From an uncultured bacterium (lineage in GTDB: Bacteria > Patescibacteriota > Minisyncoccia > Phycocordibacterales > PALSA-1337): a DNA stretch of 64,000 nucleotides. The stretch covers positions 4,820 to 68,819 of the forward strand of contig CAIQCJ010000002.1 in assembly GCA_903870315.1 (NCBI GenBank). Direction: 5' to 3'. Every line of letters begins with the position of its first letter. The first letter of the stretch is position 1. Made by a program: the position numbers and the translations under genes. The notes under the pieces are model-generated. The model was not told the origin of the DNA and ran no database searches. It was given only the letters and a program-made list of their open reading frames with translations. Positions 1-23,917 of this stretch are shown piece after piece.

Positions 1-797
1 TTTCTCAAAAAAGTATTCGTGACTTAACCGACAAAGATTGGGCTGTTATTTATCGATCGTTTGAAACTAGAATCGAGCCATACATAAAACTGACGGCGGA
101 TGCAATCCGAAAATTTAATCATGGACAAAAAGCGCGAGTGCTTCGAAATATTGAGAACGCAATCAAGAGTGTAAAAAGTGCAAAAGGAGTTGTTGCCGAT
201 GCTTTGTTTAATCTCAAGGACGAAATAGGAATCACAATAAATCTCGTAACTCCTGCATTGACTGATCTCTATGACAAGGAAGGAATCGCAGCCGGATCGC
301 TTGTTGGATTTGATAGTCCTGCACTCCAGAGAAGTGTAATTGATAGATCAATCGCACTTATGGCAAAAAGCTACAACGAAACGACTCTTAATCTCCTAAA
401 AAGCAAACTTGATCAGGGAATAGCGGAAGGGCAGTCAATACCGGAACTTAAAAACACAATCTCGGATATTTATGAATTCAGCGATGCGACTCGTGCAGAA
501 ATGGTCGCCCGTACTGAAGCATTCAGGGCAGCAAATCTCGCAACAAAAGAAGCATGGAAACAAAGTGGAGTGGTAGAGACAGTGAAGTGGTACACCGCCG
601 AAGACAGTCTTGTCTGTACATTATGTGCGCCAATGGATGGAAAAGTCATAAGCGTCAATGAAAACTTTTTCGACAAAGGGGACACAGCACAAGGTTCGGA
701 TGGTTCTTCTTTTGACATCACGTATTCGGACGTGGAGACTCCGCCACTTCACCCCGACTGCCGATGCTACATCAGACCCGAAGATTTATCAGAGTAA
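1..797 (+). CDS. Phage head morphogenesis protein (Mu F / SPP1 gp7-like), 5' partial
   Basis: Open frame runs from window start (frame of ORF 138..797 has no stop back to base 3). Position immediately upstream of prohead protease and capsid. C-terminal HPDCRCY motif typical of this family. Confidence 0.55.
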   Translation, partial: SQKSIRDLTDKDWAVIYRSFETRIEPYIKLTADAIRKFNHGQKARVLRNIENAIKSVKSAKGVVADALFNLKDEIGITINLVTPALTDLYDKEGIAAGSLVGFDSPALQRSVIDRSIALMAKSYNETTLNLLKSKLDQGIAEGQSIPELKNTISDIYEFSDATRAEMVARTEAFRAANLATKEAWKQSGVVETVKWYTAEDSLVCTLCAPMDGKVISVNENFFDKGDTAQGSDGSSFDITYSDVETPPLHPDCRCYIRPEDLSE

Positions 798-815
798 TTA
801 TATTAATTAAATATT

Positions 816-1832
816 ATGAATAAAACATTTGAATTATTTACAAACGAAGCTCGGGAAAAGTTCACTGCCGCATTTGCGACACAAGAATTTTCAGACTTCA
901 TCGCAAAGACAAAAGCTGCAACCGACTCGGGAACATTCCGAGTGATCATCTCGACTGCTGCGCCAGATAGGCAAGGAGATTCAGTTGATCAGAATCTCTG
1001 GGATTTAAATAACTATCTCAACAATCCTGTCGTGTTATGGGCTCACGATTATTACTCGTTGCCGATCGGTGTAGCAACAAAGATAGAAAAGCAAAATGTT
1101 GCCGGAGCAGATGTGCTTGTTGCTGAAGGAAAATTCGCACCTGCTGATGCAAACCCATTCGCACAGCAAGTACGTGCTCTCTACGATGCAGGAATAGTGC
1201 GTGCAACCTCTGTTGGATTTATTCCAAACTCTGCCCGCATGGACGGTAAGAGTGATCAAGGGCATGAGCTTCTTGAATTTTCATTCGTGCCGGTGCCAGC
1301 CAATCCACAAGCACTCTCTTTGTCTCAAGCGAAAGAACTAGGTCTCAATCTTGAACTTCTCAAGACCAAGGGAATTGTTTTTGAGATGAAAGATCAGGAG
1401 CCGGACGAAGGAGATGTATGCACACTTTCGGACGGAAGCGAGGGAGTCCTAGAAGAAAACGGAAATGGAGAACTGGTGTGCGTACCAAAACCGAAAGCTG
1501 CAGACAAACCTGAAGATACAGAAAAGACAGCAAGCCCTCTCTCTAAAAAGACCAGAGAGAACATTCAAAATACCATCGAAGCCTTAAAGGCAGAAATCGC
1601 CGCTTTGGAAACGCTGCTAAAAACAGCCGACTTCCAGAGTGGTGAAGGGAAGGATAACCCGAACGATGCGGGTCCCTCAAAACAAAGGTCGAATCCTGAA
1701 GAATCTAGCGAAGTTTTTAATTTTGAAAATTGGAAATTCAGCCGCGAGGTTTTGCAGGCAATTGTAACTTCCGGTAGCGAAGCACTCGAGCGCTTCAACA
1801 AAGCTGCTCGTGTGATTGGCCGCCGGAAATAA
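816..1832 (+). CDS. HK97-family prohead protease (S78) with C-terminal coiled-coil scaffold-like extension
   Basis: VVLWAHDYYSLPIGVATKIE ... ATSVGF matches the Peptidase_S78 His and Ser blocks. C-terminal heptad-like ENIQNTIEALKAEIAALETLLK segment. Lies between head morphogenesis and capsid genes. Confidence 0.6.
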   Translation: MNKTFELFTNEAREKFTAAFATQEFSDFIAKTKAATDSGTFRVIISTAAPDRQGDSVDQNLWDLNNYLNNPVVLWAHDYYSLPIGVATKIEKQNVAGADVLVAEGKFAPADANPFAQQVRALYDAGIVRATSVGFIPNSARMDGKSDQGHELLEFSFVPVPANPQALSLSQAKELGLNLELLKTKGIVFEMKDQEPDEGDVCTLSDGSEGVLEENGNGELVCVPKPKAADKPEDTEKTASPLSKKTRENIQNTIEALKAEIAALETLLKTADFQSGEGKDNPNDAGPSKQRSNPEESSEVFNFENWKFSREVLQAIVTSGSEALERFNKAARVIGRRK

Positions 1833-1843
1833 TATACAAAACA

Positions 1844-3043
1844 ATGGATCAAAAAGATCAAAAACAACTTGAAGTTTTCAAGTCTGCAATGAACAACTTC
1901 TTTGACGATGCTATGAAGGAAAAACTCGGTCCCTACATTGGCGAGGTATCTGCAAATACGACTAGGGAGATCGTAGAGAAACTACGTCTCGAGCGTATGC
2001 AGTATGGCCAAGATAAGACCGGACTTTCCGAAAAGCAGAAAAAAGATTTTGTCGAAGTGGTCAAGAGCATCCTCATGAATGTCCCTATCGATGTAAAAGC
2101 CAATGAGGCTTTAATCGAGGAACAGGATAATCGTGGAGGTTTTCTTGTCTCGCGCGAAGTGGCTAACGCCATCTTGCGTATTGCCGCATCTGTCGGTGTT
2201 GTTTTGAGCCAAGCCCAGAAATGGGATCTCAAAACCGATGAGCTCGGAATTCCGAACTACACCGGAGCATTTTTGACTGGTCAATACCTCGGTGTTGATG
2301 CGGTCGGAACTGTTCAAGGTATGGCATTCGGTCAGGCAGCCTTGATGGCTAAAAAGTGGCAGCTCGCATTCGTGATTGGCAACGATCTTCTCGCTGATGC
2401 CTCAGTTAATCTTGCAGATTGGCTCTTGGCACTCGGTGGTGAAGCTCTTGCAAACATGATCGACTATCAAGCTTTCATGGGTACAGGAAGTCCTTTCGTT
2501 GGACTTTTGAATGACACAAAAGTGCCGAAGTATACCTTGCCTTCAGGCGAGACTTCGTTCGATAAGCTCGATCCGATCACTGACTGCTCAAATATCATCG
2601 CTCAACTTGAAGAATCTGTATTGGATGGTGCCGCATTTTATATGCACCGCACTGTCTGGGCAGCACTTCGAGCGGCAAAGACTACGCAGGGTATTCCAAT
2701 ATTGCCTCTTGCCGGTTTGGCAAGTCCCGCAGTTTTGGCAAACAGCCCAACTGGCGGCGGTCCGAAACCTGTAGGCGAGATTATGGGCTTCCCAGTTTTC
2801 ACTATTCGTCATTTGCCTCAGCTTTCCGCTACTGCAGCCGGAACAAAGTTCGCAGTCTTCGGAAATATGAAAGCAACGGCGTTCGGTGACAAGGGAGAGA
2901 TGCGTGTAGAACAGTACAACTCTGGTAACTTCGGAGGCAAAGAAATTGCCCTCGCTGATCAGCGCGGAATTGTCTACAAGCATCGCCATGCGTTCGTCAA
3001 TGTTCTGCCAAAGGCGTTCACCACGATTGAGACAGCTTCTTAA
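1844..3043 (+). CDS. Phage major capsid protein (HK97-fold)
   Basis: 399 aa ORF directly after the prohead protease, followed by a strong stem-loop. Size and position typical of HK97-type MCP. Sequence-level family assignment not verifiable here. Confidence 0.55.
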   Translation: MDQKDQKQLEVFKSAMNNFFDDAMKEKLGPYIGEVSANTTREIVEKLRLERMQYGQDKTGLSEKQKKDFVEVVKSILMNVPIDVKANEALIEEQDNRGGFLVSREVANAILRIAASVGVVLSQAQKWDLKTDELGIPNYTGAFLTGQYLGVDAVGTVQGMAFGQAALMAKKWQLAFVIGNDLLADASVNLADWLLALGGEALANMIDYQAFMGTGSPFVGLLNDTKVPKYTLPSGETSFDKLDPITDCSNIIAQLEESVLDGAAFYMHRTVWAALRAAKTTQGIPILPLAGLASPAVLANSPTGGGPKPVGEIMGFPVFTIRHLPQLSATAAGTKFAVFGNMKATAFGDKGEMRVEQYNSGNFGGKEIALADQRGIVYKHRHAFVNVLPKAFTTIETAS

Positions 3044-3060
3044 ATTGTAAGCAATAAATT

Positions 3061-3089
3061 CGACAGAGAAATATCCTAATTCTCTGTCG
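3061..3089 (+). terminator. Perfect 10-bp stem-loop (cgacagagaa / ttctctgtcg, 9-nt loop) immediately after capsid gene. Possible attenuator/terminator or RNA processing site
   Basis: Inverted repeat read directly from sequence. Not followed by a clear U-run, so intrinsic-terminator status is uncertain. Confidence 0.3.
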
Positions 3090-3141
3090 GAAAAATTGCG
3101 AAATAAAGGTCGGATTACAAACAATAATTCAAAACATAACT

Positions 3142-3582
3142 ATGCACAGTATTTATGACAACGTTGCGGTTTCTAAGAGCATCGCTCCACAAAGCGATAG
3201 CGGTGGCAGCGCAGTAGACGGCGCAGTCGTCGACACACTCGGCTACGAGACAGCGATGATTGTGTTTGAAGCCGGGGCGATTTCTGGAACTCCTGATGCG
3301 ACATCAATCGCAGTCAAGCTCCAAGAAGGTGATGCTGCTGACGGTAGCGACATGGCTGATGCCAAGGACAATACCGAAACAGTGATTGGCGGAACCATCA
3401 CTGCAGCCGGAGTTCTTCTCGCTCGTGTTGAAGGCTTAGGCCTAAATAGGAAGCGATATCTCCGAGTTGTAGAGACAACGACCTTCACCAACGGTACAAC
3501 GCCGGCAGTTTCTGTTCATGGAAACATCCTGCTCGGCCGAGGTTTACAAAAACCTGCCAACGCTGACGTTTCAAACACCTAA
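3142..3582 (+). CDS. Hypothetical phage head-associated protein (Ala/Gly/Thr-rich; possible decoration protein)
   Basis: 146 aa ORF with own ATG after capsid gene. Composition and position only. Confidence 0.3.
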   Translation: MHSIYDNVAVSKSIAPQSDSGGSAVDGAVVDTLGYETAMIVFEAGAISGTPDATSIAVKLQEGDAADGSDMADAKDNTETVIGGTITAAGVLLARVEGLGLNRKRYLRVVETTTFTNGTTPAVSVHGNILLGRGLQKPANADVSNT

Positions 3583-3649
3583 GAGAATTGATCGCGTTCT
3601 CGCAGTATCCGTTTATGCGGATACTGACGAGGACACGATCCACAAACAT

Positions 3650-4303
3650 ATGAGCGAACAAATATATCCTCACGCCTTAACTACAGTTCAAAGAGTCAAA
3701 GATCTTCTCGGCATCACTGTTACAAATGCCGATCCCGTTCTTTTGCGTTTGATAAATGGAGCTACAGATTTTATTCAGGGCTACTGCAATGAATTCTTCG
3801 CGCAAAAAACCTACACGAATGATCTCTACTCAATCTGGGGTGAGCGACAGGAATACTTGATGCTCAATCATGGCAACGTGACTTCTCTTAGCAGTTTCCA
3901 GTACCGAGCAGGTACGCCATCAAATCCAATCTGGACAGATTTCCTCGCTGATCAATATGAGCTCGTTGAGCCTGATCCAAGTGGTATGTGTAAAAGCGGA
4001 ATGATTCGCATCTATGCGGGTTTTGCTCCGCTTCTTTACACAAGCACCAATGCGATCAGAGCTACATACACGGCAGGTTTTCTTATCAGTTGGTCTGACT
4101 TCGGAAATTTGGCAAAACATAATCTTCCAGCAGATCTTACAAACCTCTGCGAAAGTCTTGTGACTCGATATTGGAAGCATCGTGAATCAAGCGGAAAGAA
4201 AACCGAATCGATAAAAGATTCGAATGTCAGTTGGAATGATTTTCTGGATAGTTTCGACACAGACGTACTCGAAAGATATGTGCGTCCAGTGAGATTCATC
4301 TAA
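3650..4303 (+). CDS. Head-tail connector protein (gp6-like)
   Basis: VKDLLGITVTNADPVLLRLINGATDFIQGYCN resembles the N-terminal signature of gp6-like head-tail connector/DNA-packaging proteins. Start chosen at internal Met (MSEQ) because upstream part of ORF 3518.. overlaps the preceding gene. Confidence 0.45.
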   Translation: MSEQIYPHALTTVQRVKDLLGITVTNADPVLLRLINGATDFIQGYCNEFFAQKTYTNDLYSIWGERQEYLMLNHGNVTSLSSFQYRAGTPSNPIWTDFLADQYELVEPDPSGMCKSGMIRIYAGFAPLLYTSTNAIRATYTAGFLISWSDFGNLAKHNLPADLTNLCESLVTRYWKHRESSGKKTESIKDSNVSWNDFLDSFDTDVLERYVRPVRFI

Positions 4304-4307
4304 AGCT

Positions 4308-4817
4308 ATGGCAGAAACTCAATTCAACATAAGAATTCAGAACCTTGATCAAATTGTTTCTGCATTCAGACAAGCACCATCGATCACTGCTCCAAGAATA
4401 TCCGATGCAATCAACAAAGCACTCGCTATTCTTGCGAAAAACGGAGACGAAAGCACATTCCAATTCAAAACACCAAGAGAGCTACGAACAGGGTACCTCT
4501 CAGCATCATGGGGAGCTCCCGGACGAGGATTGTCACTTGCGACACCATCAAATCTCTCGGGAAAAATATGGACAAACGCAGGATATGCAATCTACGTTCA
4601 CGAAGGAACAGCACCACACACAATCACTGTCAGAGTAAAAAAAGTTCTGGCAAATCAAAAAACCGGAGAGATATTCGGAAAAACAGTGCATCACCCGGGA
4701 ACCGCTCCCAACAGATTCATCCCGAGAATTATCAGCAAAAGCCAAAGCGATATCAATACAGCTTTCAGAGTTGCTCTTGATTACATCGTGCAGGACATAG
4801 CAAACAAATCGCAATGA
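4308..4817 (+). CDS. Phage head-tail joining / head closure-like protein (hypothetical)
   Basis: 169 aa ORF in the canonical slot between connector and tail genes. No recognisable motif. Confidence 0.3.
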   Translation: MAETQFNIRIQNLDQIVSAFRQAPSITAPRISDAINKALAILAKNGDESTFQFKTPRELRTGYLSASWGAPGRGLSLATPSNLSGKIWTNAGYAIYVHEGTAPHTITVRVKKVLANQKTGEIFGKTVHHPGTAPNRFIPRIISKSQSDINTAFRVALDYIVQDIANKSQ

Positions 4818-5254
4818 GTGCAATAGGAAATATAAAACTGAAAATTATTGATCATCTTAACGCTCTCAAAACTGCGGGAACATTGGGGCAGGTAATTGTC
4901 GAACAGGCGGGAGCGCAAAACATGTTCGACAGAGATCTTCTTGTGTACCCGAGCGCGATTCTGCTTCCCGGCACAGCCGAAGGAAACGTCGAATCAAATC
5001 AAGACAACTTATATCTCTACTCGTTTGACATTGTGGTCGTTATGAAAAATGACAACATCACCGGACAAACGGCAGTAGAAGATTTACTCGAAGCTGTAGT
5101 TCAAGAATTCAACAAAGATTTTACTCTTGGCGGAACAGCAGTCGGAGCAGTCGATCCGACATCGTCATCGCCGGCGGCCATCGAATCAAGCGGACAGACA
5201 TATACAGTATTCGTGGTTACGCTCAAGGCGAAAACATTACTCACGTTCAACTAA
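4814..5254 (+). CDS. Phage tail component (hypothetical; tail completion/terminator slot)
   Basis: 146 aa ORF, ATGA-type overlap with the upstream gene. Position only. Confidence 0.3.
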   Translation: MSAIGNIKLKIIDHLNALKTAGTLGQVIVEQAGAQNMFDRDLLVYPSAILLPGTAEGNVESNQDNLYLYSFDIVVVMKNDNITGQTAVEDLLEAVVQEFNKDFTLGGTAVGAVDPTSSSPAAIESSGQTYTVFVVTLKAKTLLTFN

Positions 5255-5268
5255 AAACATGATCGAAA

Positions 5269-5441
5269 AAGCAAACATTACCAAAGACATGTCTTCACCC
5301 GTCAAAGAGTATCACTTTGCCGGAAGCGGAAAATATTATCCTCTCACTGTTACTGCCAAAAGCAGAGAGGAAGCCGAGAAGATATGGATCGAGAAAAGGC
5401 AGGAAGTAAAGGTCGAGGAAACAAATAATCAAACACAATAA
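5269..5441 (+). CDS. Small hypothetical phage protein (57 aa)
   Basis: ATG at 5269 (MIEKANITKD...) in frame with the tail of ORF 5127..5441. Fills the gap before the major tail gene. Confidence 0.25.
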
Positions 5442-5443
5442 TT

Positions 5444-6433
5444 ATGTCAAAAGGAATAGGAAAATTATTTCAGATAGGAATTGCAAAGGAGACATCAAGA
5501 GGCACTCCGATCGCGACAGCTTCATACTGGCCAGCTTTCACCGATGCTTCGCCAGAAGAAAAAGTAGAGAATGCCGTTGATTCACAGTCGTATGGTGTGA
5601 TTGAAGACAGTGCCTCTCAGACCAGAGTTAAAAACTGGATGGAAGGATCAATCAATGCTCCGGTTACAGATCAAAGTTTCGTGCTCTTGCTTCTGTCTCT
5701 TCTCGGTACAGATACTCCTGCTTTGCATGCAGGAGAAACTACAGTCTACGATCACGTTCTGACTGTGGCACAAAATTCGCAGCATCAGTCGCTGACTCTT
5801 TTCGTTCACGATCCGATCGCAAGTCAGGATTACTCGCATACTCTTGGAGTGGTCCATAAGATGGATATTGATTATGCGTTAAAAGATTTTGTGAAATATG
5901 CCGCCTCAATTATGGGTCAGCAGGGATCGCAAAAATCAGCTTTCTCTCCGTCACAATCGGCCGAGAATAGATTCGTACCTCAGTATCTAACATTCAAAAC
6001 CGCAACTAACCTCGCAGGACTTGCCGCTGCAACTCCGATAGCAATAAAGAGTTTGAAACTTACGATCGATGACACCATCGAATCACAGGATGTTCTCGGA
6101 AGCGCATCGCCAGCCGACTTTTTGAATAAAGAATTCAAAATAGAAGGAACGCTTGAAGCAATCTGGCAAAACGAAAGTGACTTCAAAACAAACACGATCG
6201 CCAATACACCTCAAGCAATGCGCCTTGATTTGATCAACTCCGCAGTAACACTCGGAACTTCCGCACATCCTGAAATTAAAATTGATCTTGCAAAAGTTTA
6301 CTTCACCGAGTTCAGTCGTCCGATAAAAGTAAAAGATATTGTCTACCAGACTTTGAAATTCAAAGCCGCATATTCGATATCAGATGCGCAGATGGTGAAA
6401 ATCACCTGCACAAACACAGTCGCAGCTTATTAA
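5444..6433 (+). CDS. Phage major tail (tube) protein
   Basis: 329 aa ORF immediately upstream of the G/GT chaperone pair and tape measure gene, the conserved siphovirus order. Confidence 0.45.
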   Translation: MSKGIGKLFQIGIAKETSRGTPIATASYWPAFTDASPEEKVENAVDSQSYGVIEDSASQTRVKNWMEGSINAPVTDQSFVLLLLSLLGTDTPALHAGETTVYDHVLTVAQNSQHQSLTLFVHDPIASQDYSHTLGVVHKMDIDYALKDFVKYAASIMGQQGSQKSAFSPSQSAENRFVPQYLTFKTATNLAGLAAATPIAIKSLKLTIDDTIESQDVLGSASPADFLNKEFKIEGTLEAIWQNESDFKTNTIANTPQAMRLDLINSAVTLGTSAHPEIKIDLAKVYFTEFSRPIKVKDIVYQTLKFKAAYSISDAQMVKITCTNTVAAY

Positions 6434-6451
6434 TAGAAGTAATTAACATTT

Positions 6452-6778
6452 ATGGAAGAAAGAGAAACAAAAAATATCACAACGCCGAGTAATCACGTAA
6501 TAGTCCTCAAAACTTATCTCACTGGTAGGGAAGTGAACGATATTAAACGCACACTTTTCGGATCGGTATCAGTCGAGCGAGGAGAAGATGGTAAACCGGT
6601 CATTCCGGAATATCCGCTCTCTTTGGCAATTGACCGAGAGAAGAAACTTCTCGAATACACGGTGATCTCGATTGACGGCGTCAAAGAAAATGCCGCTGAC
6701 AAAGTTCAAGATCTGGTTGCGGGGGACTACAAGTTCGTAGTTGCGGAAGCTGAAAAAGCGGTAGATGGAAATTTTTAG
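6452..6778 (+). CDS. Tail assembly chaperone (G product)
   Basis: 108 aa ORF directly upstream of tape measure gene. Ends in slippery heptamer plus stop. See frameshift feature. Confidence 0.55.
   Translation: MEERETKNITTPSNHVIVLKTYLTGREVNDIKRTLFGSVSVERGEDGKPVIPEYPLSLAIDREKKLLEYTVISIDGVKENAADKVQDLVAGDYKFVVAEAEKAVDGNF
6769..6775 (+). promoter_or_regulatory. -1 programmed ribosomal frameshift slippery heptamer A_AAT_TTT at the end of the chaperone gene
   Basis: Zero-frame codons gga aat ttt tag, so heptamer AAATTTT (X_XXY_YYZ) sits directly on the stop codon. The -1 frame is open for 68 further codons. Confidence 0.55.
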
Positions 6779-6984
6779 AGGGCGAAGTTGAGGCGGCATG
6801 GGTCAGATACTTCGCCTTTGGAAATCTCGAATTCCCCGATGAAATGACGGTAGCGATTCTTTGCAGAGAAATGGGCTGGACATGGAATGAGCTTCAGAAT
6901 CAGCCGATCTGGTTTGTGAAAAATCTCATGGCATATCTTAGCGCTGAATCAGATCACATAAAAAAGCAGCAAAAAAATAAATGA
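6775..6984 (+). CDS. Tail assembly chaperone -1 frame extension (T part of G-T fusion)
   Basis: -1 frame reads LEGEVEAAWVRYFAFGNLEFPDEMTVAILCREMGWTWNELQNQPIWFVKNLMAYLSAESDHIKKQQKNK* with no internal stop and no ATG start. Terminates in ATGA overlap with tape measure start at 6981. Confidence 0.5.
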   Translation, partial: LEGEVEAAWVRYFAFGNLEFPDEMTVAILCREMGWTWNELQNQPIWFVKNLMAYLSAESDHIKKQQKNK

Positions 6985-8861
6985 ATTCAATACTCCAAAT
7001 AGTCATACAAGCAGTTGATCAGGCATCTGAAGCCTTGAGTAATATCGGCAATGCAATAAGTGCCGATGGACAAAAAGCGTTGACTACTCAGCAACAGATG
7101 CAACAAATGGGTCAAGCAATGGAACAGGCTGGTACTCGAGTATTGGCTATGGGTGCGGCTGCTGATGCCTTTTATGGAGGAGCAGTTCTTGCAGCAGAAA
7201 AAAGTCAGCAGGCAGAAGCTAGTCTGGCGGCAAGTGTTGAAAATTTGGTCAAACAATCTGAAGCAAGTATGGGTGCTGATAGCGGTGCTGCTCAGCAGAA
7301 AGCTTTTCTTACAACGAAGATACAGGAAGCTCAAGCTAGTATTGCCAAGCTTTCATCAGAGACGGAGAAAAGTACGCAGCTCGCCAAAGATCATGGAGCC
7401 GCTAACGAGGCGAATGCGGCGAAGATAGATGCTCTCAATCAGACAGTCGCAAAATATCAAGGTCAGCTTGATCTTCTAAACAATACGCAGAAACTTGCAG
7501 GCGCATCGGCTCAGTCGATAATTTCAACATTTGAAAACCTTGCAGAAAAGAATGTGGCTCTTGGTTTCGGTATTGAGGATTCGGTAAATGCTCTCAATGG
7601 ATTATTTACTGAAACAAAAAGCATGCCGGAAGCCATACAGGCATATAATGCCGCTCTTGATTTATCTAGATTCAAACATATGGATCTTGAGACTGCGACA
7701 AAGCAAGTTGAAATGGCGCTACAAGGTCAAGGTCGCGCACTAGCAACTCTTGGCATCCAAATTAAAGATGGACTCACGCCAATGCAAGCACTTCAAGCCT
7801 TGCAAGAGCAGGTCAAAGGACAGGCTGAAGCATATGCCGACACGCTCGGAGGAAAAACGGCGGTAGCATTGCAAAAAATAAATAAATTATTTGAGGACAT
7901 GGGCAAAACGCAGATGCCGATTTTGACAAAACTGATCGGAATTTTTGCGGACATCATAGACAAGATAGATCAGTGGGTCACTGCTCATCCAAAATTGACA
8001 GCAGCTATTATGGTTTCAATTGGAGTATTTGGAGTCCTTGCAACAATCGCAGGAACGCTTCTCATAACTGTCGGGGCATTAGTCGTGATATTCGGTACTG
8101 CCGCAGCAGCGGTCGCAGGATGGGCAATTGCAATTATTGCCGCAGTAGCAATTCTTGCAGGCATCGTAACACTCATCTTTGAATACCATACTCAGATATG
8201 GAATTTCATTCAGATGATCTGGCAGAAAATAACTGCATGGCTCGGAGAACAGTGGACAAAAATCACTGCTGACTTCAATCAGGCATGGAATGCGATAAAA
8301 ACTCTAGCAAAAGATGTTATGGATTTTGTGATGAGTATTATTACAGCTGATGTTCAGATAATTGGTACGGCATGGAATACAGCATGGAGCGGTATATCAG
8401 ATTTCTTCACAGGTATATGGAACGGAATAAAAAATGCTTTGCAAAGTGCGGTGTCATTCATTACTGATCAGTTGAATAATCTCTTTAGTTTTGTCTCAAA
8501 TATTGCAGGAAAAATATCAGCGCCAATTCAATCAATAACAAGTTTTGTCTCAAGCGCTGCTTCAGCCGCAGGAAGAATCGGAAGTTCAATCGGCAATGCA
8601 GTCTCAAGTGTTGTGCCTCATTTCGCATCTGGCGGAATAGTGAACGGTCCGACGTACGCGCTTGTCGGCGAAGCGGGTCCCGAGGCAATTATTCCACTCT
8701 CAATGCTTGGACGTGGTGGAAGTACGATAGGGAATAATCAATCAGGCTCAATCAACGTGTATCTTTCAGGAAATTTTTACACAGATCAGCAGAACGCAAC
8801 AAGAATCGGAAACATGATCGCAAAGGTCTTGAATCAACAGCTTAAGCTCAAGAATTACTGA
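6981..8861 (+). CDS. Tail tape measure protein
   Basis: 626 aa. N-terminal coiled-coil-rich region, central hydrophobic/TM block, and repeated W-containing segments (ITAWLGEQWTKITADFNQAWNAIK; GTAWNTAWSGISDFFTGIWNGIKNAL) typical of TMPs. Follows G/GT chaperone. Confidence 0.75.
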   Translation: MNSILQIVIQAVDQASEALSNIGNAISADGQKALTTQQQMQQMGQAMEQAGTRVLAMGAAADAFYGGAVLAAEKSQQAEASLAASVENLVKQSEASMGADSGAAQQKAFLTTKIQEAQASIAKLSSETEKSTQLAKDHGAANEANAAKIDALNQTVAKYQGQLDLLNNTQKLAGASAQSIISTFENLAEKNVALGFGIEDSVNALNGLFTETKSMPEAIQAYNAALDLSRFKHMDLETATKQVEMALQGQGRALATLGIQIKDGLTPMQALQALQEQVKGQAEAYADTLGGKTAVALQKINKLFEDMGKTQMPILTKLIGIFADIIDKIDQWVTAHPKLTAAIMVSIGVFGVLATIAGTLLITVGALVVIFGTAAAAVAGWAIAIIAAVAILAGIVTLIFEYHTQIWNFIQMIWQKITAWLGEQWTKITADFNQAWNAIKTLAKDVMDFVMSIITADVQIIGTAWNTAWSGISDFFTGIWNGIKNALQSAVSFITDQLNNLFSFVSNIAGKISAPIQSITSFVSSAASAAGRIGSSIGNAVSSVVPHFASGGIVNGPTYALVGEAGPEAIIPLSMLGRGGSTIGNNQSGSINVYLSGNFYTDQQNATRIGNMIAKVLNQQLKLKNY

Positions 8862-8862
8862 C

Positions 8863-10293
8863 ATGCTTCAAATTAAACGAAACACAAGTACGGATATAAG
8901 CGCAGGAGTTCAGTGGAAAACTGTTCAGATCACTGAGGTGCTGACTAAAGAAGTGAGTAAGTTGCAATTCACGATTTATAAAACACCGGCGACCACATCA
9001 ATGATTCCGGTTGTTGGTGATCAGATTGATGTGTACGAAAATAGTGTTCATATTTTTGGTGGCACATGCACGAATGTCGAGATTACTATCCAAGGCGGAG
9101 TGCTACTTGCGTATCAGATATCTTGTGTTGATTGGAGCTACAAACTAAACAGCATACTTGTGACGAAAACATACTCCGCAATGGATCCGGCCGACATTGT
9201 CGCGGATATTGTCGCAAACTTTGTACCGGCAAGTCTGGGATTTACTCAAGCTCACGTGGTTCGTGGAGGTTTCCAAGTTGCATCAATTAAATTCAAGTAT
9301 GAGCAGGTAACTCAAGCATTGGAAAAGTTAGCAAAACAAATTGGATGGGAATGGTACGTTGATCCATCAAAAGATATTCATTTCTTCCTCGTGCAAAATA
9401 ATCCTGCGCCTTTCAACATCGATGAGACTTCAGGAAAGATTGAATGGCCGTCGCTTGATGTTCAGGTGGATCTCACCAATATGAAAAATAGTGTCTACGT
9501 CGTCGGCGGAAATTATCTAAAAACATTTACTGCGTTAACTGCCGTTGATGTTTATCAGACAGACGGAGTAAAAACGGTGTTTGGTTTGGCTTATGCCTAT
9601 GACCAGACAGGCTTCACAGTAACCCTAGACGGAACAACTCAAACAGTCGGAATTGATCAGCAAACTGATCCAACTACAGTGCAATGGCTCTATAGTGCAT
9701 CGGGCAGATTTGTCCGATCAACAAGTACTGTAGCAACTGGTCATACACTAAAAATATTTGGTAATGCACAGATTCCTATTCTTGCCCATGCTCAAAACTC
9801 TTCAGCAATTGCACAATACGGAGAAAATCAGGATTCAGTCATCGACAGGCAGATACGATCGGTAGCGGAAGCTCAGCAACGAGCGCTCGCTGAGATTCTT
9901 CAGTTCGGACATCCAGTCTATGACGTTAAATTCAAAACAATTCAAACGGGGCTTGTGATCGGGCAGACGATACTGCTAAACAGCTCAAAGCTAGGCATTA
10001 CAAATTATCCGCTTGTGATCAAGCGAATCGAAGGAACCGGATACAGTCCAAGCCAGTTCGAATACCAAGTCGAAGCGCTAGGATCCGACAACGTAACATT
10101 TGTCGACATTATGAGCAGACTTCTTACTCAAGAAAATAACAACACCGATACTTCAGACAACTCAGTAATTGAAGGACTTCTGGCTTTTGCTGAAGGCTTC
10201 ACGTTCTCCGATGCTCTGACAGCCACGCCAACAACAGGTCCATATAAATGGGGTCAATCTAATACAAAGTGGGGCTTCTTTACTTGGGCATAA
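8863..10293 (+). CDS. Phage distal tail / baseplate-like protein
   Basis: 476 aa ORF immediately after TMP (1-nt spacing). Position-based call. Confidence 0.4.
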   Translation: MLQIKRNTSTDISAGVQWKTVQITEVLTKEVSKLQFTIYKTPATTSMIPVVGDQIDVYENSVHIFGGTCTNVEITIQGGVLLAYQISCVDWSYKLNSILVTKTYSAMDPADIVADIVANFVPASLGFTQAHVVRGGFQVASIKFKYEQVTQALEKLAKQIGWEWYVDPSKDIHFFLVQNNPAPFNIDETSGKIEWPSLDVQVDLTNMKNSVYVVGGNYLKTFTALTAVDVYQTDGVKTVFGLAYAYDQTGFTVTLDGTTQTVGIDQQTDPTTVQWLYSASGRFVRSTSTVATGHTLKIFGNAQIPILAHAQNSSAIAQYGENQDSVIDRQIRSVAEAQQRALAEILQFGHPVYDVKFKTIQTGLVIGQTILLNSSKLGITNYPLVIKRIEGTGYSPSQFEYQVEALGSDNVTFVDIMSRLLTQENNNTDTSDNSVIEGLLAFAEGFTFSDALTATPTTGPYKWGQSNTKWGFFTWA

Positions 10294-10299
10294 AACATT

Positions 10300-10818
10300 A
10301 TGAAAGAATTAATCAAAAAATTATTCGGAATAAAAGACAGTGCATCAATGCAGGGGATTATTAAAATCCGAGCATATAAAGCTGGCACTAAGGAATTGGT
10401 TCGGGAGATTGTGTGCAAAAACACTATCATGCAAGCAGCGAATATTGGCAAAGATTTGATCGTGCAGAAACTCATTGCAACAGCAACAGGAATTGATCCG
10501 TACACATTGCACATTACATATGGAGCTATTGGCACAAGTCAAACAGCACCAACAACAGCAGATACTCGACTTGGCGCGGAATCAGCTAGGGTCGCAATTA
10601 CATTCGGACAAGATAGCGGATACAACATCGCAGTCATGCAGTTTTTCTTTCCAGATTCTTCGCTAACAAACCAAACATACTATGAATTTGGAACTTTTGT
10701 TGACGGAACATCTACTCCAAATAGTGGACAGCTTTTCAATCATGCACTTTTCGGAGTGCCTTATTCCAAATCGGCCGGTATTGATACCACGATCGAGGTC
10801 GATATAACTCTTACTTAA
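10300..10818 (+). CDS. Phage tail protein (hypothetical)
   Basis: 172 aa ORF in tail module. No motif recognised. Confidence 0.3.
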   Translation: MKELIKKLFGIKDSASMQGIIKIRAYKAGTKELVREIVCKNTIMQAANIGKDLIVQKLIATATGIDPYTLHITYGAIGTSQTAPTTADTRLGAESARVAITFGQDSGYNIAVMQFFFPDSSLTNQTYYEFGTFVDGTSTPNSGQLFNHALFGVPYSKSAGIDTTIEVDITLT

Positions 10819-10823
10819 AAAAT

Positions 10824-11816
10824 ATGATATCAACAGGACAACAAGCACTCGCATCCGACTTCATCGCTACTTCCGCAGGCGCGGGAAGCAGTGGTCAGGT
10901 TCCGAAATGCAATTCACTCGGAAAGATAGATAACTCTTTTCTTCCAATTAAATTCGGCGGTACCGGAGCGGATGGTGTGCTTTCAATCACATCGGGTACG
11001 ACAACAATAAGCGCCGGAAGTGCAAGTGTTCTTGTTAAAAATTACACATCCATATCGATCACAGGAACTGGAAAACTCGCATTTTCAAATCCCGGATCAA
11101 ATGGAACTTTAATATTTCTAAAATCGCAAGGAAACGTAACACTCACGTCATCAACCGCTCCAATGATTGATGCCTCTAATATGGGAGGTCCGGCAGGAAC
11201 GGCTGGATATTATGGCGATGGAACTAGCCCAACACAAGGAGCGGGCGGAAACTTTTATAGCGGTGGATCATGGGGACAAGGCGGTGGTGGTGGAGGTGGA
11301 GGTGGCGCACTTTCAGGTGGTGGCACTGGTTACTACAGTGGAAGTGTGCCTGCTGCCGGTGGAGGAACGACTGGTCTGAAAAGTATTCTCGCATCTTACG
11401 CTTACGCAAAAGGGACGAAACTCGTGACAGGTGCAGGCGGTGGTACAGGAAACAACGGAGCAGGTTATGGTGCATCAGGTGGTGCAGGTGGAGTCGGAGG
11501 CGGATGTTTGGTAATTGAATGCGCCGGTTATTTAAATTTCACAACAGCAAACGGAATTTCTGCCGCAGGATCGAATGGTGGAAACGGAACATCAAGTGGT
11601 AATGGAAATGGATTCGATGGTGGTGGGGGTGGTGGAGGCGGAGGTGGAACTGTAATTCTTTTATACAACCTTCTTACAGCAAATTCAGGAACAGTAAATG
11701 TTAATGGCGGAAACGGCGGGAACGGAGGTACTGGCGGAACTGGAAGTCCTGCCGGTTCAGGTGGTGGCGGGGGTAGCGGCTTGTCATTAGTAGCTCAAAA
11801 TACAGAATTTACATAA
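10824..11816 (+). CDS. Glycine-rich tail fibre-like protein with poly-Gly tracts
   Basis: 330 aa, runs of 8-10 Gly (GGGGGGGGG) and GxG repeats. Last gene of the tail module. Confidence 0.4.
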   Translation: MISTGQQALASDFIATSAGAGSSGQVPKCNSLGKIDNSFLPIKFGGTGADGVLSITSGTTTISAGSASVLVKNYTSISITGTGKLAFSNPGSNGTLIFLKSQGNVTLTSSTAPMIDASNMGGPAGTAGYYGDGTSPTQGAGGNFYSGGSWGQGGGGGGGGGALSGGGTGYYSGSVPAAGGGTTGLKSILASYAYAKGTKLVTGAGGGTGNNGAGYGASGGAGGVGGGCLVIECAGYLNFTTANGISAAGSNGGNGTSSGNGNGFDGGGGGGGGGGTVILLYNLLTANSGTVNVNGGNGGNGGTGGTGSPAGSGGGGGSGLSLVAQNTEFT

Positions 11817-11824
11817 AAAATATT

Positions 11825-11998
11825 ATGCAAGAACAAGAACAAAAACCAAATATTATTCACGAATTGAAATGCGGTATATGTGGAAAAGTCTGCGGAACGA
11901 TTACGTTTCCGTCAGAATCTGAAGTGGATCTAGATGAGGTCTCTGCTGGCCACGAAACATTATGTGATGAACATTCACCAAAAAATCCCGATGAATGA
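11825..11998 (+). CDS. Small Cys-rich (CxxC ... CDEH) hypothetical protein, possible zinc ribbon
   Basis: ATG at 11825. MQEQEQKPNIIHELKCGICGKVCGTITFPSESEVDLDEVSAGHETLCDEHSPKNPDE. Below ORF-track length cut-off. Stop overlaps next start. Confidence 0.25.
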   Translation: MQEQEQKPNIIHELKCGICGKVCGTITFPSESEVDLDEVSAGHETLCDEHSPKNPDE

Positions 11999-12203
11999 AA
12001 ACCCTATTGAAAAAAGAATAGAGACTATTGAATCCGAAATAAAGCAGATCAAGGAAAATCACTTGGCACACATCAAGGAAATTTTGGCTGTGGTAAAAAC
12101 CAATCAGGAATGGATAATGCGATTTTTTTGGATTCTTACATCCGCTTCGGTCGCAGGACTAATTACTGGAATTATAAATTTATTAATCAAAACAAAAATA
12201 TGA
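11991..12203 (+). CDS. Putative holin-like small membrane protein (single C-terminal TM)
   Basis: MNENPIEKRIETIESEIKQIKENHL... then hydrophobic FFWILTSASVAGLITGIINLLI segment. Immediately upstream of, and overlapping, the endolysin gene. Confidence 0.3.
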   Translation: MNENPIEKRIETIESEIKQIKENHLAHIKEILAVVKTNQEWIMRFFWILTSASVAGLITGIINLLIKTKI

Positions 12204-13258
12204 ATGAACAATCAATTGCAACCGGAGCTTTAATATCTCCGCATGACTATAGGGACGGATATGCGTCAGCGGCAGTTGCAGAACAAATTTCTACACAAAT
12301 TAATCTGCCGGTATCTTACAAAACAATTCTCGCATCTCCGATGATGCAAGCGTTGGAGCCAGCATGCGTGTCGCACAGTGTTGTCGACAACCTAAAACTT
12401 TACTGGTTTAGAAAAACAGGGAAGTGGATTGACTTCTCTCCGAGATTTCTCGATATCCTCGCTAAAAGATTTGATGGTCAGGATCGTGCGACAGGCGGTA
12501 CGTATCCTCGTCTCGTATTCAAGCTCGCAGTTTTGTACGGATGTGCCACAACAGCGACACTACCGAACGACACATCGCTGTCAGTCTTGAATTATCGTGA
12601 TGATAGCAAGCTCACTCCTGAAGTATTCGCTGAAGCTAGTCAGTATAAGATTCCCGGCTACGTTTCTGTACCGCTCGATTTTCAAGGAACACGTCAATCA
12701 ATCTATTTATACGGAGCGATTTCGACACTCTTTCAAGTTGGTGATGAATTATGGACTCCATCATGGGCAGACAAGGACATTGACCCATTACGTCCGCCAA
12801 AAGTTATCCTTTCAGGGCATCAAATGTCGCCATTCGGATGGGAAGACAACGTGTACAACGATCTCCAAAATGAATGGAGCGATAAATGGGCAAATAAAGG
12901 ACAGGATCGCTATGATCCAAAAGCATGGTCGCCATACATCATCGAACAGTGGGCAGTCGCAGAAATTCCTCAAGATGTTCAGGACTTTTTGAAAGCTTTG
13001 CCCGCTCCAAATAATTTTCATTACAGTTGGCAAAGAGATCTTGCACTTGGCGACAATAACGATGATGTCAAATTCGCGCAGATCGCATTTATGATCCTAG
13101 GATTTCTCGCACCAATTCCTGCTAATGAGCTCGGCATCTTCGGTCCGAAAACTGCCGCAGCAAACGCTAAGTATCAGCAAGCACATAAGATCGCACCGGC
13201 ACCGAATCATATAGGTCCGCAAACGCGCGCGGCATTAAACGCACAATTTGCGATCTAG
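12200..13258 (+). CDS. Endolysin: N-terminal hydrolase domain (possibly Cys-peptidase-like) plus C-terminal peptidoglycan-binding domain (PG_binding_1-like)
   Basis: C-terminus DDVKFAQIAFMILGFLAPIPANELGIFGPKTAAANAKYQQAHKIAPAPNHIGPQTRAALN fits the G..V..lQ..L...G(x)FG..T..A...(Y/F)Q...G..G..T...L PG-binding pattern. Located between two holin-like genes. Confidence 0.5.
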   Translation: MNEQSIATGALISPHDYRDGYASAAVAEQISTQINLPVSYKTILASPMMQALEPACVSHSVVDNLKLYWFRKTGKWIDFSPRFLDILAKRFDGQDRATGGTYPRLVFKLAVLYGCATTATLPNDTSLSVLNYRDDSKLTPEVFAEASQYKIPGYVSVPLDFQGTRQSIYLYGAISTLFQVGDELWTPSWADKDIDPLRPPKVILSGHQMSPFGWEDNVYNDLQNEWSDKWANKGQDRYDPKAWSPYIIEQWAVAEIPQDVQDFLKALPAPNNFHYSWQRDLALGDNNDDVKFAQIAFMILGFLAPIPANELGIFGPKTAAANAKYQQAHKIAPAPNHIGPQTRAALNAQFAI

Positions 13259-13286
13259 GTCGAATTATTAATCAATAAAAAATATC

Positions 13287-13505
13287 ATGAATCCAACACT
13301 TAAAAGATATCTGATAAGCTCAGCCACAACGTTTGTAACAGCTTTTATCATTTCCGTCGGCGCACAACTTACAACGATGCAAATCACGCCAGAAACGCTC
13401 GGGTGGGGAATTGTTGCGTCTATCGGAGCAACAGCCTGCCGTGCGGCGATTAAAGCCCTAATTGAGGCTTTTTCAGGCACAACTGGTGATCCATTATTGG
13501 GTTAA
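13287..13505 (+). CDS. Small two-TM membrane protein (holin/antiholin-like)
   Basis: 72 aa, two hydrophobic segments (ATTFVTAFIISVGAQL; GWGIVASIGATACRAAI). Last gene of lysis cassette. Confidence 0.35.
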   Translation: MNPTLKRYLISSATTFVTAFIISVGAQLTTMQITPETLGWGIVASIGATACRAAIKALIEAFSGTTGDPLLG

Positions 13506-13579: not shown

Positions 13580-13608
13580 CTAGGTTGTTAGAAATTAACA
13601 GTAAAAAC

Positions 13609-14691
13609 ATGGAAGACAACAGCCGAAAATTTGATCACAGAATTAAAAATCCTGAGCCTCATATCGTCGCTTTTTTGGCAGCGATAGATGAAATTCGTGG
13701 AGCTTTTCGCGTTGGTCTTCGCATGACTCCTCAAGCGATCACCAATCTGCACAAATCCGTACTCGTGACATCAGCTGGTGCTTCTACACGTATTGAAGGT
13801 GCAAAACTTTCTGACGAAGAAGTAAAGAAAATCATGGAAGGATTCTCAATCCAAAAATTCTCCGATCGTGATTCACAGGAAGTGCAGGGCTATCTTGAAA
13901 CGCTCAAAAATGTTTTCGACAATTATAAAGACTTGCCATTGCGAGAAAGCATAATTACTTCGCTCCACAAAGAGCTTCTAAAATATTCAAACAAGGACGA
14001 CTTACATCGTGGAGAATACAAGCATAAGGAAAATCTAGTCGGCGTTCTCGATGCCAAAGGAAATGTGGCAAAGATCATGTTTGAAACAACCCCAGCATAT
14101 CTCACACAAAAAGAGATGACTGAGCTTGTTGAATGGACACAGGAAGCACTAGAGAAAGAACGCTTCCATCCACTTCTAGTGATCGCCAATTTCCTTATTG
14201 AATTCCTGAAAATACACCCATTTGAAGACGGAAATGGTCGTATTTCGCGTGTTCTCACGAACTTACTACTTCTTCGACAAGGCTATTCATTTGCACAATA
14301 CGTCTCGCATGAGCAGATCATAGAGCAACGCAAGGATCAATACTATCTTGCTCTCCGATCATCGCAGGCGACATTTAGAAGTCAAACCAAGCCGGAAGGA
14401 CAAGAAGAAACGATCACACCTTGGCTCAACTTCTTCTTTTCAGTTGTGAAAGAACAGGCAGACAAGTCAATCGTGCTTGTAGAAGAAGAAACACACGAAG
14501 ACATAATGTCTCCAAAGCAAAACGAAGTCTTGGAATATCTCTCAAAGGTAAAAGAAGCTGGTCCAGCCGAGATTGTCAGAGAAACTGGAATTATTATGCC
14601 ATCGGTTCGTAAATCACTTGAACGGCTTGTCGAGCTTGGCAAAGTAAAAAGAATTGGTCGAGGCAGAGCAACGAGGTACGTAAAAATATAA
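13609..14691 (+). CDS. Fic family protein (Fic/Doc AMPylation-type domain) with C-terminal winged-helix-like region
   Basis: Canonical Fic motif HPFEDGNGRISR. ORF-track start 13585 is TTG; ATG (MEDNSRKF) at 13609 chosen. Confidence 0.8.
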   Translation: MEDNSRKFDHRIKNPEPHIVAFLAAIDEIRGAFRVGLRMTPQAITNLHKSVLVTSAGASTRIEGAKLSDEEVKKIMEGFSIQKFSDRDSQEVQGYLETLKNVFDNYKDLPLRESIITSLHKELLKYSNKDDLHRGEYKHKENLVGVLDAKGNVAKIMFETTPAYLTQKEMTELVEWTQEALEKERFHPLLVIANFLIEFLKIHPFEDGNGRISRVLTNLLLLRQGYSFAQYVSHEQIIEQRKDQYYLALRSSQATFRSQTKPEGQEETITPWLNFFFSVVKEQADKSIVLVEEETHEDIMSPKQNEVLEYLSKVKEAGPAEIVRETGIIMPSVRKSLERLVELGKVKRIGRGRATRYVKI

Positions 14692-16636: not shown

Positions 16637-16639
16637 TTT

Positions 16640-20429: not shown

Positions 20430-20433
20430 TTTT

Positions 20434-23134: not shown

Positions 23135-23743
23135 ATGGATCAAATTATCTACATTTTAATAAACGAAGCGATGCCCGGATATGTAAAAGTTGGTAAGACT
23201 ACAGATTTAGAGCAAAGGGTCCGCGATCTATCGCGTGCTTCAGGAGTTCCTCTTCCTTTTGAAGTTTTTTATGCTGCAAAAGTGAAAGACATGCATGAAG
23301 CTGAAAAATTAATACATGATGCCTTTGGAGATACACGCGTAGCTCCGAACCGAGAATTTTTTAAGATTGCTCCAGAAAGAATTGTGGCGGCCTTAAAATT
23401 GGCTCAATTAGAAAATGTAACCCCACATAGCGACTTCGTTGATTCTCCTGAAGAACAAAAAGCTCTAGATAACGCTAGGAAGAATCGGGCAAAATTTAAT
23501 TTTGAAATGGTAAAAATAATGCCGGGTAGTATTTTAACTTTCACTCGAAATCCAGAGATAACATGTAAGGTTATCAATGACACACAAATTGAATATAATG
23601 GGGAAATAAAAAGTCTTTCTGAGGCGGCAAAACTAGCTCTTGGGATTGATTACCAAGTGGCCGGGACATTGTACTGGGAATATGATGGGGAGACATTGGA
23701 TGAACGCCGAAGGCGCTTCGAAGAAGGTAACGATCAAGAATAA
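23135..23743 (+). CDS. T5orf172 (GIY-YIG-like) domain protein with DUF4357-like C-terminus
   Basis: IYILINEAMPGYVKVGKTTDLEQRVRDL ... FEVFYAAKVKDMHEAEKLIHDAF ... NREFFKI matches the T5orf172 pattern. Confidence 0.5.
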   Translation: MDQIIYILINEAMPGYVKVGKTTDLEQRVRDLSRASGVPLPFEVFYAAKVKDMHEAEKLIHDAFGDTRVAPNREFFKIAPERIVAALKLAQLENVTPHSDFVDSPEEQKALDNARKNRAKFNFEMVKIMPGSILTFTRNPEITCKVINDTQIEYNGEIKSLSEAAKLALGIDYQVAGTLYWEYDGETLDERRRRFEEGNDQE

Positions 23744-23906: not shown

Positions 23907-23917
23907 TAAATAATTTG

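Follow-up and report, generated by a model that had tools for sequence, protein, structure and literature searches.

A probable temperate siphovirus-type prophage with a predicted papain-fold endolysin and a putative defence hotspot in a Paceibacteria chromosome

The candidate phyla radiation (CPR, Patescibacteria) holds a large share of bacterial diversity, very few of its members are culturable, and the biology of their phages is known almost only from software predictions. Among them the Paceibacteria are ultra-small bacteria, largely without CRISPR. Prophages described from such hosts include ten in three metagenome-assembled genomes (MAGs) of aquifer Paceibacteria, with a mean length of 43.7 kb and in some cases a C5 methylase (PMC12455944), 411 temperate viral operational taxonomic units of groundwater Patescibacteriota (PMC12911398) and prophages of Absconditicoccaceae flanked by attachment (att) sites (bioRxiv 10.1101/2024.03.08.584096); in the Hainich aquifer, Paceibacteria had the most virus links (PMC12960796). 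Here we analyse a 64,000-nt stretch of contig CAIQCJ010000002.1 from an uncultured bacterium (hereafter the window), whose positions 1-26806 are very probably the right-hand 26.8 kb of a ~36.4-kb temperate, siphovirus-type prophage with an HK97-fold capsid, lying in a Paceibacteria (Ca. Taylorbacteria-like) chromosome. An earlier reading of the window from its sequence, referred to below as the original prediction, had presented an intact phage of such a host as a rare view; this was overstated, as Paceibacteria prophages have already been reported in numbers (PMC12455944, PMC12911398, bioRxiv 10.1101/2024.03.08.584096). The element is a real, well-preserved and unusually well-delimited example of an already known kind of prophage, and its more original aspects are the putative defence hotspot and the predicted papain-fold lysin.

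With the prophages of PMC12455944 and PMC12911398 the element shares the host class, the tailed temperate phage type, a comparable size (36.4 kb against a mean of 43.7 kb) and a C-5 cytosine methylase. By their description those prophages are software predictions (CheckV, geNomad, DRAM-v) with att sites unresolved, whereas here attL, attR, attB and a naturally unoccupied site are placed to the exact base, and the cargo comprises several defence systems rather than auxiliary metabolic genes ('AMGs'). The Absconditicoccaceae prophages and phage RSA-ATP1 resemble it in being apparently intact and in carrying RusA-like and replication-initiator genes, an endolysin and a holin, but they use genetic code 25 and belong to another host class, whereas the present element and its host both read cleanly in code 11.

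The extent of the element is given by a 13-nt core that occurs at both of its ends and once in an unoccupied chromosome, next to an integrase gene:

25423..26367 (+): tyrosine integrase (PF00589 E=7e-26; phrog_1 integrase E=8e-34)
26794..26806 (+): attR core ATGTCGCACAATA, 13 nt, placed by homology break points; the sole exact copy in the window
L140rc 2391-2403, ~9.6 kb left of window position 1: attL core ATGTCGCACAATA
L137rc 8268-8280: attB core ATGTCGCACAATA, single copy in the empty site
attB junction: ...TATGTATC / core ATGTCGCACAATA / TATCTTTTG...
attL junction: ...TATGTATC / core ATGTCGCACAATA / AAGCTTATG...
attR junction: ...ACGACACT / core ATGTCGCACAATA / TATCTTTTG...

The empty site was found by exact-sequence lookup of the neighbouring host GltX, which also returned several occupied contigs. 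The empty-site contig L137 (ERZ19030192 scaffold_1204; GltX 100% identical) carries no phage and matches the window from 26794 on at 99.96%; on it the gene of a small membrane protein directly precedes an SLT-like gene, after which come genes for ribosomal proteins L27 and L9, CtpB, CorA, CysRS and DnaB. A 25-nt probe consisting of the other flank of the empty site plus the core matched one JGI contig, L140, which joins the empty-site flank (99.9% identical to L137) to the phage left arm (99.9% identical to L002, introduced below) at the same 13-nt core. By coordinate arithmetic the element measures ~36,407 bp from attL to attR, starting 9.6 kb left of the window and ending at 26806. The att duplication that the original prediction had proposed to look for thus exists as a 13-bp direct repeat at both ends with a one-copy empty site, and the element does not end at 13505, as had been supposed: the next 13 kb, with the defence cargo, the integrase and attR at 26794-26806, belong to it as well. 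Tandem integration of two elements at one att was considered and rejected, as there is no internal copy of the core. The attB lies in the spacer between two convergent host genes and, given that no tRNA, tmRNA or Rfam RNA was found at the site or in the window, it is not an RNA gene. Contig L139 (ERZ27313080 k141_233199) stops ~250 nt inside the right end of the prophage, a break to be expected if the sample contains both occupied and empty alleles.

The IMG/VR contig L107 was also tried as a source of attL and rejected: its core is right, its left flank is unlike the empty site, and it represents a variant phage in another context. A search with the P'-arm pattern recovered only L107 itself. 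On this contig (1160-1300; IMG/VR 3300022555_000354) a 12-nt core, TGTCGCACAATA, is joined to a different left flank with a CAP-domain gene. Its phage, a variant from the same sample, is 87% identical to L140 at the nucleotide level and 89-98% identical in amino acids in most shared proteins, and L107 probably represents a second integration context or host.

The part of the element that lies outside the window was read from public contigs. The capsid protein of the element recurs, identical in every residue, in 66 public-assembly blocks, whose contigs reach 115 kb, and the contigs L002 (ENA ERZ27313057 k141_256063, 110.7 kb) and L004 (JGI Ga0212088_10000786, 72.2 kb) are 100% identical to window 1-13043. 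The left half that the original prediction had noted as missing is found on them intact, with TerL, portal and replication genes on the same contig, which gives the following order for the whole element:

Left: attL, two small genes, AAA_24 ATPase, RepO-like initiator, RusA-like resolvase, ParB-N6 methylase, C5 methylase, TerS/TerL (on L002 and L004 the run from the ATPase to the C5 methylase continues with a 195-aa putative small terminase, TerL, an 84-aa gene and a 739-aa portal-MuF fusion)
L002 4867-6321, within this left part: TerL (phrog_38 E=1.3e-66)
Middle: portal-MuF, protease, capsid, connector proteins, tube, G/GT with a -1 frameshift, tape measure, tail tip, glycine-rich fibre
Right: lysis cassette, cargo, integrase, small helix-turn-helix (HTH) protein, attR

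Large terminase and portal are thus both part of the element (phrog_38 for TerL on L002; PF04860 for the portal on the 739-aa gene). Every module is present with uninterrupted open reading frames (ORFs), the programmed frameshift included, and the phage is apparently intact; the degradation of structural genes elsewhere in the element, which the original prediction had named as a possible outcome against it, was not seen. All genes of the element but one share one direction, and in the ORF map window 1-13505 is an unbroken plus-strand run with short or overlapping junctions, forming a co-directional late operon. The siphovirus-type morphogenesis and lysis module proposed for this run was recovered with every named ORF in its place on the plus strand, most of them backed by profile matches. 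From terminase through portal, protease, HK97 capsid, connectors, tube, G/GT with -1 frameshift and tape measure to tip and fibre, the genes are ordered as in Lambda/HK97-type temperate siphoviruses; like them, the element has a tyrosine integrase whose core is short, and it carries non-essential cargo between the tail/lysis genes and int. It differs from them in the fused portal-MuF, in lysis genes placed after the tail genes, in the common direction of nearly all genes, in the predicted papain-fold endolysin and in that no CI/Cro-type switch is recognised. A megablast of window 1-14000 against 50,697 GenBank phages gave no match. In IMG/VR, 47 contigs carry a TerL 45-97% identical to this one with conserved replication-packaging-head-tail synteny, and judged by these contigs the lineage of this phage is widespread. 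From the naming of contigs and bins (BUCK21-1, GROS21-1, AM-, MJ-, Alinen...), stratified freshwater lakes may be the setting.

The head and tail genes within the window are:

3..797 (+): C-terminal MuF domain of the portal-MuF fusion (PF04233 E=1.3e-17; phrog_2662 portal E=4.4e-30)
816..1832 (+): prohead (head maturation) protease, its C-terminal tail coiled-coil/scaffold-like (phrog_80 E=1.5e-14, phrog_617 E=1e-15)
1844..3043 (+): HK97-fold major capsid protein (PF05065 E=1.3e-24; phrog_10 E=2.8e-24)
3142..3582 (+): conserved phage protein (phrog_5707 E=7.7e-15)
3650..4303 (+): head-tail adaptor, gp6-like connector (PF05135 E=8e-8; phrog_442 E=1.3e-21), 217 aa as called in L001-L004
4308..4817 (+): Neck1 / tail completion protein (phrog_5 E=4.9e-9)
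4814..5254 (+): tail terminator, a weak match (phrog_4204 E=1.7e-4)
5444..6433 (+): tail tube protein, Phage_tube_2 (PF18906 E=3.4e-16; phrog_290 E=1.5e-29)
6452..6984 (+): tail assembly chaperones G (6452-6778) and G-T, read from the sequence
6981..8861 (+): tape measure protein, 626 aa (phrog_58 E=5.5e-30, phrog_991 E=6e-30 and 20 more tape measure PHROGs)
8863..10293 (+): tail tip protein of 476 aa in the distal tail protein position (phrog_400 'tail protein' E=3e-9, weak; 42% identical homologue in L151)
10300..10818 (+): small tail/fibre-associated protein (phrog_5417 E=7e-11; phrog_4176 tail fibre E=2.6e-6; weak)
10824..11816 (+): putative tail fibre, glycine-rich (30% Gly) by composition, its N-terminal 118 aa 71% conserved in L151

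The first of these is the C-terminal third of the 739-aa portal-MuF fusion, whose gene begins upstream of the window (full length in L002) and in its full form matches PF04860 and PF04233 in L001-L004. For the protein at 816-1832, previously called an S78 protease, the protease role stands through phrog_80, whereas the S78 family is reached only below threshold (Pfam Peptidase_S78, 15.5 bits against a cutoff of 21, E=0.02); a sequence search gave no PDB match. The G/GT assignment of the original prediction is borne out by the heptamer A_AAT_TTT at 6769-6775, a canonical -1 slippery site: the 3' end of the G gene reads ...GGA AAT TTT TAG, and the -1 product G-T, of 177 aa without an internal stop, ends with the TGA at 6982-6984, which overlaps the ATG of the tape measure gene. 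By the usual tape measure ruler (626 aa x 0.15 nm) the tail would be ~94 nm long. Given that no ORF between the neck and the tape measure gene has a sheath-family match in Pfam or PHROG, a non-contractile tail is a reasonable reading. Sequence search found no PDB match for the 476-aa tail protein (8863-10293), and the glycine-rich protein (10824-11816) has no family match in Pfam or PHROG.

The lysis cassette follows the fibre gene directly:

11825..11998 (+): 57-aa acidic, Cys-containing protein without a hydrophobic segment (maximum KD19 = 1.01)
11991..12203 (+): 70-aa holin candidate with one C-terminal transmembrane domain (TMD; KD19 = 2.01 at residues 45-66), its stop overlapping the endolysin start
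12200..13258 (+): endolysin, 352 aa as called in public contigs, with a predicted N-terminal papain-fold (C1-like) cysteine peptidase and a C-terminal PG_binding_1 domain
13287..13505 (+): 72-aa small membrane protein, a second holin-like or lysis accessory protein, with a borderline TMD at residues 8-26

Among the holins that had been proposed, the ORF at 11825-11998 was rejected for want of a hydrophobic segment, the one at 11991-12203 keeps its place with one clear TMD, and the one at 13287-13505 has a borderline segment. The 70-aa candidate is 72-80% conserved beside the endolysin in the related contigs L150 and L151, and the 72-aa protein has a 75% conserved counterpart after the endolysin in L150. 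The PG_binding_1 domain that the original prediction had assigned to the endolysin was matched just at threshold (23.3 bits against a cutoff of 23), while the catalytic domain, which it had not recognised, appears to be a papain-fold peptidase. The N-terminal 270 residues have no Pfam or PHROG match. Among 235 homologues in a large protein collection a few carry precomputed Peptidase_C1 (PF00112) matches, and since PF00112 is absent from this protein even at E<=1, we file it as papain-fold/C1-like and not as a C1A member. In an alignment of 40 homologues Q50, C56, H207 and N224 are invariant, and these would correspond to the papain catalytic set, a Cys-His-Asn triad with the oxyanion-hole Gln. 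Searched against the PDB, the endolysin profile matches xylellain (3OIS, E=1.5e-8, residues 5-235) and cathepsins L, K and V (cathepsin L1, 3KSE, over residues 43-238). An AlphaFold2 (AF2) model with a pLDDT of 93 retrieves 3OIS first in Foldseek (E=1e-12, TM 0.78), then papain and cathepsins, and among viral models it matches the full-length architecture of A0A6J5MXS7, an uncultured Caudovirales protein named 'Peptidoglycan binding-like' (TMq 0.75). Judged by the model, the lysin is a papain-fold cysteine peptidase with a wall-binding domain; it has the fold (TM 0.78) and the Gln/Cys/His/Asn set in common with xylellain (3OIS) and the C1A papain-family peptidases and the two-domain architecture in common with A0A6J5MXS7, but differs from xylellain and the C1A peptidases in an identity of only 15-21%, in its endolysin position and in the fused cell-wall binding domain. 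Its position after the holin candidate and the fusion to PG_binding_1 point to peptidoglycan degradation as its predicted activity. The characterised cysteine-peptidase endolysins are of the CHAP, NlpC/P60, Amidase_5 or C39-like types, and no characterised papain-fold endolysin is described in the same sources (PMC10318531, PMC3314691); the type exists in uncultured phages. A papain-fold endolysin with PG_binding_1 fits the peptidoglycan genes of the window (murG, ftsW, M23 peptidase, YceG), and the protein is a candidate for breaking open CPR cells, which are otherwise intractable.

Between the lysis genes and the integrase lie ~12 kb of cargo, from SoFic to the S49 peptidase, followed by the short right end:

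13585..14691 (+): Fic-domain protein, SoFic-type defence candidate (PF02661 E=7e-17; PADLOC SoFic E=3.7e-43)
14696..19258 (+): type III restriction-modification (R-M), Mod 14696-16636 and Res 16640-19258 (PADLOC MTase_III E=2.5e-169, REase_III E=1.5e-248), also matching Pfam N6_N4_Mtase, ResIII and RE_endonuc
19263..22335 (+): SIR2-HerA pair, SIR2 19263-20429 and HerA 20434-22335 (PADLOC SIR2 E=4.4e-62, HerA E=2e-174)
22340..23092 (+): RecB/Cas4-like PD-(D/E)XK nuclease (PF12705 E=1e-15; PADLOC Cas4-like)
23135..23743 (+): T5orf172/MUG113 protein, PADLOC candidate PDC-S57 (PF10544 E=6e-18; PDC-S57 E=1.6e-69)
23915..24793 (+): S49 (SppA-like) peptidase with an N-terminal membrane segment (PF01343 E=1.4e-28), in L154 and L161 also present after the nuclease (51-58% conserved)
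24801..25076 (-): 91-aa ORF, alone in the element on the minus strand and conserved at 74-79% identity in the distant relatives L154 and L161
26410..26628 (+): basic protein of 72 aa, HTH signal weak (HTH_23 E=0.043, sub-threshold)

By PADLOC models the cargo consists of complete known defence systems (type III Mod and Res, SIR2 and HerA, SoFic), and its predicted role is defence against phages. The 72-aa basic protein, placed beside int and attR, may be an excisionase or a regulator. In a promoter/terminator scan of 11.7-27.3 kb, promoters were not above the shuffled expectation.

Related elements, chosen by an endolysin 80-86% identical or a nuclease 77-90% identical to those of the window, differ in what lies between these two genes, which together flank six different cargo sets; in L150, L151, L154 and L161 the nuclease is at the same relative place:

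Window: SoFic, type III R-M and SIR2-HerA
L136: 963-aa ResIII and 941-aa Ppl-like protein
L150 (688-kb contig): SoFic, a different type III R-M and a GajB-like UvrD helicase
L151: type II R-M headed by a LexA/S24-Dam fusion, and PDC-S18
L161: Fic, methyltransferase (MTase), ResIII, SMODS/AGS_C and SLATT
L154 (complete Ca. Campbellbacteria genome CP064977.1): two methylases and an AAA_13 ATPase

The L136 set comes from a second lysogen, scaffold_227 (L003, L136), whose structural genes are 91.4% identical to those of the window; in L136 homology to the window is lost past the lysis genes and returns, at 99.3%, where the nuclease starts (22334). The right arm, from the nuclease through the S49 peptidase to the 91-aa ORF, is kept in L154 and L161, and the integrase of L161 is unrelated (21% identical). 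As the defence systems found at this position vary from one related element to the next, the slot between the lysis genes and the nuclease would be a hotspot for such systems. It resembles the defence hotspots of P2-like and P4-like prophages (bioRxiv 10.1101/2021.01.21.427644) in having a fixed slot, conserved flanks and differing defence systems, but differs from them in phage type, host phylum and anchors (here the lysis cassette and the RecB/Cas4-like nuclease), in that the nuclease is found beside variable islands of Paceibacteria chromosomes too, and in that defence is here predicted.

Two of these contigs show further features. The fusion in L151 (11447-12952, plus strand) is a 501-aa protein with a LexA DNA-binding domain, an S24 peptidase and a Dam-type methylase at the head of the type II R-M genes, and could place R-M under SOS-responsive control. 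In L154 (CP064977.1, 1-5000) tail genes are present with only a 94-aa PG_binding_1 fragment at the endolysin position, which suggests a decaying prophage that has kept cargo and right arm.

Nuclease homologues number at least 8,000; the best 120 are 70-100% identical, and those with an organism name are labelled Paceibacterota, Parcubacteria or Campbellbacteria. Our first reading of the nuclease as a phage core gene is weakened by homologues on chromosomes. In L159 and L160 it adjoins uvrB-uvrA-uvrC-hrcA-grpE-dnaK. In L155 and L157 it lies between the gene for a 236-aa exonuclease (RNase_H_2/PolB-exo) and LCAT-DUF4012-MurJ-LepA, without phage genes and with a variable island directly upstream, bounded on its left by the exonuclease gene:

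L155 (~4000-10000): type I R-M, SduA and Fic
L157 (~4000-10000): zeta-like kinase, HTH protein, MTase, SDH protease and DUF6941

The nuclease gene may thus have passed from the host to the phage lineage, or in the opposite direction; in the lineage of the window its place within the att-bounded insert is unambiguous.

Several observations weigh against a single functional prophage. Nuclease homologues of 75-77% identity stand in plain chromosomal contexts, and the right arm (nuclease, S49 peptidase and 91-aa ORF) has a host-like GC content of 40-41%, so that some of the insert may derive from the host by capture or constitute a second element. The 91-aa ORF itself has no Pfam match, and its single-sequence AF2 model is poor (pLDDT 67) with no significant fold match. 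For the distal tail protein and the fibre, the assignments come solely from gene position. Among the element proteins no CI/Cro-like repressor or recognisable excisionase was found with Pfam and PHROG, and no circular (attP) junction was found in IMG/VR, the only collection searched for it.

The insert might instead be a composite of a phage without an integrase of its own (attL to the lysis genes) and a defence island, or a captured piece of host DNA, that brings the integrase (from Fic to integrase), the two being co-mobile or only one of them still moving, which we consider unlikely but of some weight. Such an origin would agree with the three GC zones (44.3% in the late module, 35.0% in the cargo at 13585-22335 and 40-41% in the right arm, with the host at 41.5%), with the lower identity of the structural part (91.4%) than of the stretch from nuclease to host (99.3%) in L136/L003, with the nuclease homologues that lie beside uvrBAC (L159) or below a variable island with no phage within 10 kb (L155, L157), and with the unrelated integrase attached to the same right arm in L161. 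However, the insert has one integrase and one pair of core repeats with no internal hybrid att, all 36.4 kb are absent from the empty site, tail and lysis genes are directly joined to cargo and nuclease in four divergent genomes (L150, L151, L154 and the window), and mosaic identity patterns are normal for temperate phages. A second alternative is that this is a cryptic (defective) prophage which has lost particle formation and is kept for the benefit of its defence cargo to the host. The lack of a recognised repressor or excisionase and of a circular form in IMG/VR, and the apparent loss of the endolysin catalytic domain in the related element of CP064977.1, speak for such decay, but all modules and the programmed frameshift are preserved as described above, 13 kb are 100% identical between the ENA and the JGI assemblies, near-identical chromosomes occur both with the site occupied and with it empty, and assemblies break at the att site, which makes a defective element rather improbable. 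That the link between phage and Patescibacteria is an artefact of assembly or binning, the phage infecting another organism, is hardly credible: nothing was found in its favour beyond the general caution due to metagenomic contigs, whereas the same junctions were assembled independently by different pipelines (megahit k141 contigs, GROS21 scaffolds, JGI), are precise at a 13-bp repeat that matches the empty site, and link phage and host physically on one contig independently of binning.

Taking the element as a single temperate prophage, we propose that in the lysogen the low-GC cargo (SoFic, type III R-M, SIR2-HerA) would shield the host, and hence the prophage, from other phages. After induction the integrase, possibly with the 72-aa HTH protein, would excise a circle; the late operon would build a capsid and a non-contractile tail of ~95 nm; and the one-TMD holin would free the papain-fold cysteine peptidase, which, anchored by PG_binding_1, would cut the peptide part of the host peptidoglycan. 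A broader scheme, which we put forward tentatively and regard as somewhat doubtful, is that in Paceibacteria the conserved nuclease gene marks a defence hotspot both on a widespread temperate siphovirus family and on the chromosome, with prophages as a main vehicle shuffling R-M, SIR2-HerA, SMODS/SLATT, Fic and other systems between cells, and hosts lysed by a previously uncharacterised papain-fold endolysin. The locus provides a base-resolved reference (attL, attR, attB, empty site and full gene map) for prophage borders and for measuring induction from metagenomic reads. Its variable defence block indicates that a genome well under 1 Mb can give ~9-12 kb of prophage to immunity, and it suggests that phages carry such systems within a lineage mostly lacking CRISPR.

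The host was placed with one marker, RpoA. The window RpoA is 84-87% identical to its top matches, MAGs of Ca. Taylorbacteria, Paceibacterota and Parcubacteria, and in a search with one genome per GTDB species all of the best loci (80/80) are from Patescibacteria-type MAGs, which supports a Patescibacterium as host. The CPR-like host of the original prediction therefore holds, with these MAGs and not a well-studied phylum closest to it. To the right of the element the window encodes the M23 peptidase, GltX, MurG, FtsW, ScpAB, TrpRS, DnaJ/K, GrpE, S9, L13, L17, RpoA, S4, S11, S13, AlaRS, MnmA, YceG, LeuRS, YchF and PilC; the last of these, a PilC-type platform protein at 62306-63358 on the minus strand (PDB 3jc8 E=1.8e-36), agrees with the type IV pilus genes noted earlier. 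Three further minus-strand host genes were noted for their domain contents. In the leucyl-tRNA synthetase (56048-59056, 1002 aa) the editing domain is followed by an inserted NUDIX domain (PF00293, E=1.4e-10, residues 440-539), the alanyl-tRNA synthetase (47921-49852) is only 643 aa long and comprises the catalytic core and the SAD domain, and a 348-aa protein (54908-55954) combines Sigma70 region 4 with a HARE-HTH domain.

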